DNA of 64,000 nt, from IMG/VR virus record IMGVR_UViG_3300024270_000002. One strand, given 5' to 3'. The stretch is from a virus. Its lineage: Duplodnaviria; Caudoviricetes. Under the pieces are notes generated by a model. That model had not been told where the DNA came from, did not search any database, and saw only the letters and a list, made by a program, of their open reading frames with translations. This document shows, in pieces, positions 806 to 16,649 of the stretch (positions are counted from its first letter, which is position 1; the number at the start of each line of letters is the position of its first letter). The translations under genes and the position numbers were made by a program.

Positions 806-2109
806 GAACGCTTCAGCACTTTAACGAATTCGTAAAGGAGATTACCTCCAGCGGCTCTAAGAAGTTTAAGCAGTCGGTGCTGCAGAAATATAAGGATGAT
901 GAGGTAATTCAGAAGTACCTCAAGATCGCTTTTGACCCTTATACTGTCTATGGAATTAGCTATAAGAAGCTGTCTACTCAGATTAGGTCGGCGTCTAATT
1001 ATATCCCTAGAACAAAGTCTGTCTTCGAGTTGTTTGATTACCTTGCAGTACATAACACCGGCACTTTTGATGATATTCTGGAGTGCTGTAATGCTTTGGA
1101 GGCAGTTGCTACAGTAGACCAGGAGTCGTCATTTCTTCTTACTAAGCTTATCTGTAAAGATTTGAGTATCGGCGTCGAGGCAAAGACTATCAATAGCGTA
1201 ATTCCTTGTTTGATTCCTACTTTCGATGTACAGCTGGCGAATAAGTACTTCGATAAGCCGGAGTATGTAGAAGGAAAGGATTTCGCTATCACAACTAAGA
1301 TTGACGGCGGTCGTATTATTGCTCTTAAGGAAAACGGGCAAGTTTCGTTTTATACTCGTGCTGGTCAGAGATATGAAGGTCTTGTTGATCTTGAGCATGA
1401 GATGCTTGAGAAACTTCCTAACGGACTTTGTCTTGACGGCGAGATTACTATCTTTGATAACAAGGGCATCCCTTCTAAGGAAGCATATAAGAGAGCAATG
1501 AAGATTACGAGATCAGATGGTGAAAAGCATGGACTTAAGATGATCTGTTTTGACTGCATGCTCGCTGAGGAGTTTAGAGCACAAAGATGCGAAAGAACTT
1601 GGGAGGAGCGTAGACAGATGCTGAGTAATGTTATGGCTAGTGCATCTGGTGGTCTTATGTACTTCGAGCCTCTTCCTGTTCTCTATATGGGGCAGGATAC
1701 TTCTAAGATTACCGAACTTCTTGATGAAGCAATCGCTAACAAGGAAGAAGGCATTATGATCAATATTGCTCTCGCACCCTATGAGTTTAAGAGAACTAAC
1801 TTCCTCCTTAAGGTTAAGAAGATGTCCACTCTTGATCTCGAGATCGTTGGATACGAGGAAGGTAGTGGCAGACTTGCCGGTACTCTCGGTGCAATCCACG
1901 TAAGATACAAAGATGGCAATATCGTTAAGGTCGGTTCCGGTTTCTCTGATGAGCTCAGAGCACTCATCTGGCTCGAGCCTTCTGACTTCGTCGGAAAGGT
2001 AGCGGAAATTTCCTATTTTGAAGAAACCACAAATGCAAATGGTGGAATTTCGCTTCGCTTCCCGATCTTCAAAGATTTCAGACCCGATAAGCTTGAGGCT
2101 GATTTCTAA
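802..2109 (+). CDS. lig: ATP-dependent DNA ligase
   Basis: Motif I KIDGGR, LDGEI, FDC, EGIMI, LLKVK; C-terminal OB fold (VGSGFSD, SLRFPIF). Confidence 0.95.
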   Translation: MRTLQHFNEFVKEITSSGSKKFKQSVLQKYKDDEVIQKYLKIAFDPYTVYGISYKKLSTQIRSASNYIPRTKSVFELFDYLAVHNTGTFDDILECCNALEAVATVDQESSFLLTKLICKDLSIGVEAKTINSVIPCLIPTFDVQLANKYFDKPEYVEGKDFAITTKIDGGRIIALKENGQVSFYTRAGQRYEGLVDLEHEMLEKLPNGLCLDGEITIFDNKGIPSKEAYKRAMKITRSDGEKHGLKMICFDCMLAEEFRAQRCERTWEERRQMLSNVMASASGGLMYFEPLPVLYMGQDTSKITELLDEAIANKEEGIMINIALAPYEFKRTNFLLKVKKMSTLDLEIVGYEEGSGRLAGTLGAIHVRYKDGNIVKVGSGFSDELRALIWLEPSDFVGKVAEISYFEETTNANGGISLRFPIFKDFRPDKLEADF

Positions 2110-4815: not shown

Positions 4816-4877
4816 TTCGTTTACATTTATATAATACCCACGTAATAATTGTGTTGTATAATATAAATGTAAACGAA
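4816..4877. repeat. perfect 17-bp inverted repeat straddling a -10 box
   Basis: TTCGTTTACATTTATAT (4816-4832) / ATATAAATGTAAACGAA (4861-4877); TATAAT at 4857-4862. Confidence 0.85.
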
Positions 4878-7414: not shown

Positions 7415-7681
7415 ATGAAACAGTTTCTTAAGAACTTGGGAACCGGCTTTCTGTTTTTCCTGCTCTCGTGCTGCAGCTCTTGTTTTGGCATAGCCGCGTA
7501 CTACGGGTTCGTCGCTATCTCAGAAACTTCAGGTTGGACAGCTATAGGTCTTTGCCTTGTAGCAGTAGTTATGACACTCACAATGGGATTCCTTATCTAC
7601 TGCATGGGACTCATTCCTAATGATACTGTAGAAAGACTCAAGTGTAAGATTACAGAGCTGGAGGAAAAAGAAAATGATTAA
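7415..7681 (+). CDS. membrane protein (2 TM)
   Basis: Hydrophobic segments. Confidence 0.75.
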   Translation: MKQFLKNLGTGFLFFLLSCCSSCFGIAAYYGFVAISETSGWTAIGLCLVAVVMTLTMGFLIYCMGLIPNDTVERLKCKITELEEKEND

Positions 7682-11010: not shown

Positions 11011-11187
11011 ATGTTTGGAAAATATGAAACTTGGAAGATTGTTTACGTTCCTACTATTATGAATAATGGAGCAAGAGGTGTTGCTCTTGTAGAAGCCGTA
11101 GATAGACAACATGCAATGAATCAGTTTCAGCAGCAATACACCGGGCAGTTCCATACAGTAGAGTCCTGCACTAAGCTGCTCGGCTAA
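11011..11187 (+). CDS. small hypothetical protein (58 aa, not in ORF track)
   Basis: CGTATAAT box at 10972, SD AAAGGAG, MFGKYETW... Confidence 0.7.
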   Translation: MFGKYETWKIVYVPTIMNNGARGVALVEAVDRQHAMNQFQQQYTGQFHTVESCTKLLG

Positions 11188-11242
11188 AAAGAATTTAGGG
11201 AGTAGTATCAAAATTTAGAAAATAATGCCGTATAATATTATA

Positions 11243-11478
11243 GAACAGAACGTTGCGAGGGTTACGGTGCGTTTGATACTTAGGTATATTTCTTTTCTTT
11301 CTTCTCTTTTCACCTCCCTCCTTTTTCGAAAAATAAGTGTGTTCATATAAGACCACTCGCAGCGTTCGTTCGCCTCCTTCGTTTGTCATAATAAAAGTAA
11401 ATAAGTTCGGATGCCTCCTTTCTAAAGTTAATTTTATCTTATTTCTTTTAAGACCGTTGCTGCGGTCTTTTTCTTTTT
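11243..11478 (+). ncRNA. putative structured sRNA displaying anti-Shine-Dalgarno (CCUCCU) motifs
   Basis: TATAAT 11231-11236; ~20-bp closing stem 11243-11263/11351-11371; second stem 11392-11405/11438-11450; terminator; no + strand ORF of 60 aa or more and none with an SD. Confidence 0.7.
11450..11478 (+). terminator. intrinsic terminator
   Basis: AAGACCG...CGGTCTT plus TTTCTTTTT. Confidence 0.8.
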
Positions 11479-11509
11479 ATATCGTATAATATAATAAAGG
11501 AGAATACTA

Positions 11510-11698
11510 ATGAGTAGATACGTTATTTATTACAGTACCAGGAAGTGTATGTTCAGAGACCTCGCGAGTACCTGGAAAGCTTGGGCAGAAGAAGCTCACT
11601 TAGATGAAAGCCAGCTAAGAGGAATGTCGCTCTTCTTCCGGCATATAGGAAGAAGATTCGGGTTAATAAATGAATTCAAAGATATTGGTGTTATCTAA
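11510..11698 (+). CDS. hypothetical protein
   Basis: CGTATAAT box at 11483, SD AAAGGAG. Confidence 0.7.
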   Translation: MSRYVIYYSTRKCMFRDLASTWKAWAEEAHLDESQLRGMSLFFRHIGRRFGLINEFKDIGVI

Positions 11699-13023: not shown

Positions 13024-13055
13024 AAGAGTCGTATAATATTATGCGGCTCTTTTTT
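13024..13055 (+). terminator. intrinsic terminator containing a CGTATAAT box
   Basis: AAGAGTCGTATAA/TTATGCGGCTCTT plus T tract. Confidence 0.75.
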
Positions 13056-16490: not shown

Positions 16491-16519
16491 TTTACAAACC
16501 TTTCTTACTGTGATATAAT
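16491..16519 (+). promoter_or_regulatory. sigma-A-type early promoter
   Basis: TTTACA-N17-TATAAT with TG extension. Confidence 0.8.
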
Positions 16520-16525
16520 AACTCT

Positions 16526-16649
16526 GGACTAATGCTTATCCAGATCATATTAATGTCGCATTGAGAAGGGAGGTAGGTACTTTTATATTAATAATTGAAT
16601 AGCTGTCTTTTGTTTATTACCGGTCAACTAAAAGTGGCCGGTAATTTTT
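16526..16649 (+). ncRNA. putative ~125-nt sRNA or attenuated leader
   Basis: Consensus promoter followed by terminator with no substantial ORF between; contains AAGGGAGGU without a correctly spaced start codon. Confidence 0.45.
16616..16649 (+). terminator. intrinsic terminator
   Basis: ATTACCGGTCA...TGGCCGGTAAT plus TTTT. Confidence 0.8.

Follow-up and report, generated by a model that had tools for sequence, protein, structure and literature searches.

The ORF-free gap that follows a 58-aa gene in the window (the whole 64-kb stretch of phage DNA analyzed in this study) harbors what is, as judged from its sequence signals, a real and conserved RNA gene and a new RNA family; the gene would encode a ~235-nt RNA (positions 11243-11478, plus strand). 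These signals mark it as a separate transcription unit (with its own promoter motif, a covarying terminator and no conserved ORF), and a motif complementary to the Shine-Dalgarno (SD) sequence is conserved and mostly unpaired in the predicted ensembles of all 13 full-length relatives. The RNA most likely functions, as its CCUCC tracts suggest, in blocking SD sites. The best explanation of the element as a whole, to which we assign an even chance, is a stable non-coding RNA that would occlude ribosome-binding sites (RBSs) and offer several binding sites to them. It is carried by a clade of uncultivated jumbo phages of ~220-245 kb with Bacillota-type RBSs.

The preliminary description of this locus had proposed a discrete, structured non-coding unit on the plus strand with several exposed anti-SD tracts, and the combined evidence of sequence signals, folding and covariation bears this out. 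The CGTATAAT -10 box (11229-11236), the long stem P1, the C/U tract, the linker CCUCCUU, the hairpin P2 and the terminator were all found where they had been placed, the helices with RNAfold (Table 1). The predicted fold of 11243-11478 (plus strand) has an energy of -51.7 kcal/mol with z = -2.84. The linker CCUCCUU recurs at the equivalent place in three relatives (L003, L005 and L078). Within the P1 domain, the C/U tract is bordered by two GU-rich motifs, RGUGYGUUUGAU upstream (window positions 11266-11279) and UGUGUGUGAU downstream (11333-11343); both are also present in L193, L195, L200, L201, L203 and L207, and absent from L003, L005 and L078, and they could form G-U wobble pairs or a protein site.

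Table 1. Features of the RNA gene and its immediate surroundings (window coordinates).
Feature	Position	Strand	Remarks
58-aa gene, syntenic anchor of the RNA	11011..11187	+	no terminator between gene and RNA
Promoter-like motif CGTATAATATTATA, -35-less class YYGTATWATATAATA	11229..11242	+	predicted RNA start ~11243
P1 5' arm, GAAC-A-GAACGUUGCGAG-GGUU	11243..11263	+	extreme 5' end of the RNA; RNAfold, covariation
G-poor C/U tract at the apex of the P1 domain, with CACCUCCCUCCUUUU	11290..11326	+	CCUCC at 11313 and 11317; mean unpaired probability 0.74-0.90
P1 3' arm, GACC-A-CUCGCAGCGUUC-GUUC	11351..11371	+	RNAfold, covariation
Linker CCUCCUU after P1, single-stranded	11373..11379	+	CCUCC at 11373; unpaired probability 0.98
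P2 hairpin, arms AAAAG-U-AAAUAAG (11393-11405) / CUUAUUUCUUUU (11438-11449)	11393..11449	+	RNAfold
P2 loop, 32 nt, with CCUCCUUUCUAAA	11414-11426	+	CCUCC at 11414
Intrinsic terminator, AAGACCG-UUGCU-GCGGUCUU, then UUUCUUUUU	11450..11478	+	covarying stem; hairpin 11450-11469, then UUUUUCUUUUU
Next promoter motif, same class	11483..11496	+	drives downstream 62-aa gene (11510-11698)

The promoter-like motif at the 5' end of the unit belongs to one of three strand-specific classes in the window (TTTACA-17-TATAAT, the -35-less YYGTATWATATAATA, and TTGCTAAATTA), which together suggest a three-tier transcription program. The pattern YGTATWATAWW occurs 16 times on the plus strand and never on the minus strand, against an expectation of 1.6; examples are found at 4855, 10972, 11483, 17390, 19760, 27543, 31115, 35379, 36848, 39398 and 40305, typically 25-40 nt ahead of an SD. 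The TTGCTAAATTA class comprises 9 sites, located ahead of structural and late genes. At 13024-13051 the promoter motif CGTATAAT is embedded in the stem and loop of a 12-bp terminator-like hairpin (AAGAGUCGUAUAAUAUUAUGCGGCUCUU) with a U-tract. The distance from the promoter motif to P1 is constant in the 13 relatives. Since the downstream 62-aa gene has a promoter motif of its own, the RNA is a closed unit rather than a leader, and in the relatives, too, the gene after the terminator has its own promoter motif. The RNAfold energies of the two strands of the RNA do not favor the plus strand and are thus not discriminating, so that the strand call rests on the promoter motif, the terminator U-tract (present on the plus strand only) and the gene orientation (every long ORF of the window is on the plus strand).

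The absence of a credible ORF, also claimed in the preliminary description, agrees with our results. Two plus-strand ORFs in the gap lack an SD (duplex energies of -1.5 and -2.0 vs. ~-8 to -12 for real genes). The 64-aa minus-strand ORF was considered as a gene and rejected, its SD being ~22 nt away from the ATG and the ORF itself being absent from all relatives. No ORF within the element is conserved among the relatives on either strand, the longest minus-strand ORFs (9-64 aa) being unrelated to one another. In the Infernal-type comparison with Rfam that had been proposed as a check, no family matched: a search of the whole window with Rfam 15 (4227 models) at gathering thresholds returned no matches, and relaxing it to E ≤ 10 for 11150-11550 yielded only chance matches of 10-18 bits vs. 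cut-offs of 42-80. This release presumably includes models of csRNA, LhrC, RsaE, RNAIII, cuckoo/alpha-r14, phi29 pRNA, 6S, tmRNA and SSU rRNA. A captured fragment of the host 16S rRNA or ITS was rejected as a source of the element, the identity extending over only 8-14 nt and no SSU model matching at E ≤ 10. A search of the full-text literature on phage-encoded anti-SD sRNAs or mimics of the 16S tail found no precedent.

The phage itself stands apart from the deposited ones. Its own contig comprises 243,521 bp (according to the protein index), and a relative is represented by a 220,023-bp record rated 96% complete. The window encodes a DNA ligase, an RNA ligase and a nucleotidyltransferase, and its genes have Bacillota-style GGAG/GGAGG RBSs. 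Neither the DNA of the window nor its proteins matched any entry of the INPHARED phage collection; the phage has no deposited relative there. Family searches with the eight proteins neighboring the RNA gave no matches, and the 58-aa anchor protein belongs to no Pfam or PHROG family. A scan of representative prokaryote genomes found no member of the RNA family, and it therefore offers neither a prophage copy nor a clue to the host.

The relatives' loci were gathered via the 58-aa gene, which has 64 homologue clusters; genomic contexts came from IMG/VR, from one metagenome pattern match (L078) and from 12 look-ups by protein identity. The element was found in the gap after the 58-aa homologue on 13 distinct contigs, and no gene caller places a gene in this gap. 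The layout is the same in each of the 13: a promoter motif, the 5'-terminal P1, a G-poor C/U tract with CCUCC, a 3' (CA) anti-SD region and a terminator. The 3' region, (CA)CCUCCUUUCU, is presented in the loop of a AAAAGUAAAUAAG/CUUAUUUCUUUU hairpin or is single-stranded (in L200, L201, L205 and L207), and in L193, L200, L201, L205 and L207 the terminator loop reads UUCCUCC or UUCACCUCCUU. According to nhmmer, there is one copy of the element per contig. The preliminary description had pointed to related phages as the place to check the stems and CCUCC tracts, and in these 13 both are conserved, with covariation. A short form is seen in two further loci (L208 2700-2800 and L209 1185-1285), where a P2-like hairpin with the loop GGACUCCUUUCAUUUCCCCCCUCCUUCAAAU and a terminator directly follow a 57-aa gene, with neither promoter motif nor P1. 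The element is absent next to the 58-aa homologues of L204 (a short contig) and L202 (2501-2689), the latter a Clostridia MAG contig on which the homologue lies beside bacterial-looking FBPase_2 and HTH_3 genes. The downstream 62-aa gene, used as an anchor in IMG/VR, retrieved no relatives. Looser DNA patterns (in IMG/VR and in a metagenome scan) were discarded, as they mostly hit chance matches or ordinary RBSs on the reverse strand (e.g. L180 and L111); the only new member from the metagenome pattern scan was L078.

Covariation supports the proposed helices to different extents. With the RNAs aligned from their 5' ends, 96% of cells pair over the 12 positions of P1, and double compensatory changes are seen at 11 of these; the arm variants GAACGUUGCGAG, GAACACCGCAGA, GAGCGCUGCGGAG and GAGUACUGAGGACC each occur with a matching complement. 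RNAalifold, applied to a MAFFT alignment, recovered P1 and the terminator, with compensatory changes in 10 of 15 pairs. For the complete P1+P2+terminator structure, 90.9% of cells pair vs. 40-53% with slid partners, and double changes are found in 11 pairs vs. 1-6. On four of the five measures of this structure none of 500 shuffles reached the observed value, and on further standard pair types 14 of 500 did. Both the RNAalifold and the whole-structure counts understate the covariation, because MAFFT misplaces the P1 3' arm of L003, L005 and L078, an error corrected in the 5'-anchored P1 table. The terminator stem shows double changes in 5 of its 7 pairs. The arms of P2 are nearly invariant in sequence in seven relatives and show few double changes; P2 is kept by sequence, not by covariation.

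The anti-SD core is strongly concentrated in the element. The plus strand of the whole 64-kb window contains only 9 CCTCC, and four of them (Table 1) fall within 106 nt of the RNA; dinucleotide shuffles of the window RNA are expected to contain 0.17 CCUCC, and none of 500 reached four. Taken together, these two figures exclude chance as the origin of the cluster. Across the family, 14 RNAs contain 42 CCUCC vs. 3.4 expected (the largest total in 500 shuffles being 10). The other C4U1 pentamers number 2-6 each, so that CCUCC is ~tenfold enriched over C/U pentamers of equal composition. Its tracts are mostly predicted to be unpaired, with probabilities of ~0.7-1.0 vs. a mean of 0.5, and in all 13 full-length relatives the P1 arms enclose at least one of them. 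The anti-SD claim is based on these family-wide statistics.

The Bacillota 16S rRNA 3' tail reads 5'-GAUCACCUCCUUUCU(A) (PMC5427494). The P2-loop motif CCUCCUUUC, which is present in 10 of 13 relatives and as a variant in two, amounts to an 11-nt identity with it. Of the 13 full-length relatives, nine have 11-14 nt as their longest identity with the tail sequence GAUCACCUCCUUUCUA and four have 8-10 nt; UCACCUCCUUUCUA is the shared stretch in L200, L201 and L205. Of the 16S-end mimicry suggested in the preliminary description, the extension of one tract into the Bacillota tail held up, whereas the 'GGAU' upstream of CCUCC proved peculiar to the window phage, its relatives keeping (A/CA)CCUCCUUUCUA instead. 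In the P2-loop variants of L193 (CCCCCUUUCUU) and L203 (ACUCCUUUCUU), CCUUUC is kept better than CCUCC. SD sites of the phage that extend toward AGAAAGGAGG are rare (only two AAAGGAGG on the plus strand), and for this reason the conserved UUUCUA is not explained by targets within the phage. In L200 (~2850-2870), and at the same place in L201, L205 and L207, a UUCAU is followed after 7-10 nt by CACCUCCUUUCU(A). As is the case for csRNAs, this arrangement is exactly complementary to a consensus site of translation initiation (AGAAAGGAGGUG, 7 nt, AUGAA); read on the minus strand, the same stretch is a perfect RBS ahead of ORFs of only 3-11 codons.

The RNA might alternatively be a decoy of the 16S rRNA 3' tail. 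Instead of pairing with mRNA, it would titrate a tail-recognizing protein, such as a nuclease (from a host defence system or a toxin), an enzyme that processes or modifies rRNA, or a factor of the phage. Such a decoy would account for the conservation of UUUCUA beyond the core CCUCC and for the tail identity of up to 11-14 nt, an extension rarely matched by the phage's own SDs, as well as for the several displays of the motif per molecule. On the other hand, no candidate partner is encoded nearby (the neighbor genes are without family matches), the helix 45 context is absent (no SSU rRNA match at E ≤ 10), and most tracts are limited to CCUCC, with flanks that vary, a pattern equally compatible with SD pairing; we consider the decoy decidedly unlikely. 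Less probable still is a cis-acting 3' UTR of the 58-aa gene, with no role in trans, which would stabilize or terminate its mRNA or fold onto its RBS (AAAAGGAGAA). Each of the 13 full-length forms has a promoter motif of its own at a constant spacing to P1, a single RBS would have no need of three or four anti-SD tracts, and a closing stem at the very 5' end is to be expected for an independent, stable RNA; these features outweigh, in our judgment, the strict synteny with the 58-aa gene, the lack of a terminator between the two, and the short form of L208/L209 that directly follows the gene without a promoter motif.

The long, YC-rich, G-poor and unstructured tract could alternatively make the RNA a protein scaffold, in which this tract and the GUGYGUUUGAU and UGUGUGUGAU motifs bind a pyrimidine-tract protein (Rho, S1 or Hfq-like) or a phage protein. 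The retention of both GU-rich motifs in many relatives and the conservation of the P2 arms in sequence, not just in pairing, are in line with it. However, CCUCC is about tenfold more frequent than C/U pentamers of the same composition and is also found outside the tract, in the loops of otherwise unrelated hairpins including terminator loops, and we rank the scaffold below the 3' UTR in probability. Finally, the complement of each anti-SD tract reads as a perfect SD, in L200, L201, L205 and L207 the minus strand has an SD at an ideal distance from an ATG, and the fold energies do not discriminate between the strands; a functional minus strand might thus act as a multi-SD sponge for 30S subunits or CsrA, or encode tiny peptides (e.g. 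GGAGGUGAAAACAUGAAC in L200). We regard this as highly improbable: none of the 16 promoter motifs lies on the minus strand, the terminator functions for the plus strand only, all window genes are on the plus strand, the minus-strand ORFs (3-64 codons) are unrelated in sequence, and the downstream flank that a minus-strand promoter would need differs among relatives.

The RBS-occlusion reading that we prefer can be put as follows. The RNA would be transcribed from the phage-specific -35-less promoter (probably a middle-class one), with read-through from the 58-aa gene as a possible second source. It would open directly with the long closing stem P1, end at the intrinsic terminator, and expose three or four single-stranded CCUCC tracts (in the P1 apex, the linker, the P2 loop and, in some relatives, the terminator loop), one of them prolonged to (CA)CCUCCUUUCUA, which is identical to the 16S rRNA 3' tail. 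These tracts may pair with GGAGG-type SDs and their A-rich flanks and exclude 30S subunits, which would damp the translation of messages with strong, extended SDs (host and phage early messages) and affect messages with shorter SDs, such as those of late genes, to a lesser degree.

The phage's own use of GGAGG, scarcer after late promoter motifs, favors RBS occlusion. The motif precedes 11 of 23 early (48%), 23 of 69 middle (33%) and 4 of 24 late genes (17%) in what is a crude division into classes; with the same crude classes, early genes taken together with four genes lacking an upstream promoter motif differ from late ones at p = 0.018. The early/late SD contrast noted in the preliminary description thus persists as a weak trend between crudely drawn classes (11/23 early vs. 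4/24 late). The proposed selectivity is left unexplained, because GGAGG also precedes roughly one in three middle genes of the phage itself, which a generic anti-SD RNA would affect as well. To compete stoichiometrically with thousands of ribosomes, moreover, the RNA would have to be very abundant.

Two other small transcription units of the clade were encountered along the way. Relative G001 has a second, smaller and unrelated RNA at 7500-7600 (L211 ~1480-1590, minus strand of the locus), composed of the motif TTATTGTATTATATAATATA, a small hairpin, a hairpin with the loop UUUCCUCC and a terminator with the loop GAUUCCUCC. This RNA is promoter-driven and contains two UUCCUCC loops, and exposed anti-SD loops therefore recur in the clade, which likewise speaks for RBS occlusion. 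In the window, at 16491-16649 (L210 ~1330-1500, minus strand of the locus), a ~110-nt unit devoid of ORFs is under the control of an early-type promoter (TTTACA-17-GATATAAT) and has a strong terminator at its end and an orphan SD-like purine tract (GAGAAGGGAGGUAGG; UAGGAAAGGAGUG in G001); its position is conserved in G001. This unit could be a sponge or target pairing with the anti-SD RNA, or a leader.

A more far-reaching reading would combine a 16S 3' tail mimic produced in bulk with at least one further anti-SD RNA to reprogram translation globally: host and early SD leaders would be soaked up and ribosomes released to weak-SD late messages, or a tail-recognizing factor or defence nuclease would be decoyed. 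We deem it unlikely, if less so than any of the alternatives above; if true, the global tail mimic would be an RNA-based device of host take-over with no described phage counterpart. Where phages are known to control the translation of their hosts, they mostly do so with proteins (nucleases and ribosome modifiers), and few phage-encoded regulatory RNAs are known. Against this background the element is a concrete and testable candidate for an RNA that takes over translation or switches it in time, with CCUCC, the mRNA-docking motif of the ribosome displayed several times over, as the only strongly selected sequence of the family. The family is uncatalogued in RNA databases, to which it would be an addition, and the clade appears unusually rich in small RNAs.

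Among described RNAs, the nearest analogues of the phage RNA are the streptococcal csRNAs (cia-dependent small RNAs), which have an unpaired region with an anti-SD, often also with an anti-AUG, and are thought to block translation initiation regions (PMC3091779). They share with the phage RNA the general build of a Bacillota-type sRNA, in which stem-loops are enclosed by a promoter and a terminator. A csRNA-like anti-AUG (UUCAU, 7-8 nt, then CCUCCUUUCU) is found here only in the subgroup of L200, L201 and L207. In contrast to the phage-encoded RNA, with its ~235 nt, 3-4 tracts, large closed P1 domain and no Rfam match, csRNAs are host-encoded, controlled by CiaR (from a CiaR-box promoter), shorter than 150 nt, and limited to a single anti-SD region flanked by two hairpins. 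Membership in the csRNA family was accordingly rejected, in view of the different promoter motif, the three helices with 3-4 tracts and the phage context.

LhrC of Listeria and RNAIII and RsaE/RoxS of Staphylococcus and Bacillus likewise pair with G-rich RBS regions, using several C/U-rich motifs that are located in loops or are single-stranded. In these, as in the phage RNA, one molecule offers several sites; they are, however, chromosomal regulators of stress or virulence with UCCC or CCCC seeds, whereas the phage RNA has the full CCUCCUUUCU tail sequence and no Rfam match. The cuckoo/alpha-r14 RNAs of Alphaproteobacteria (CcsR, NfeR1) present CCUCCUCCC-type anti-SD sequences in hairpin loops and are often multi-copy. 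They differ in belonging to another phylum, in their short tandem hairpins and in not being phage-borne, and the phage RNA matches no Rfam model of this kind either. Among phage devices, the endoribonuclease RegB of T4 attacks GGAG in the SDs of early messages, thereby inactivating them and helping the switch from early to middle expression; it is a functional analogue only, a protein nuclease that cuts the SDs which the phage RNA would mask.
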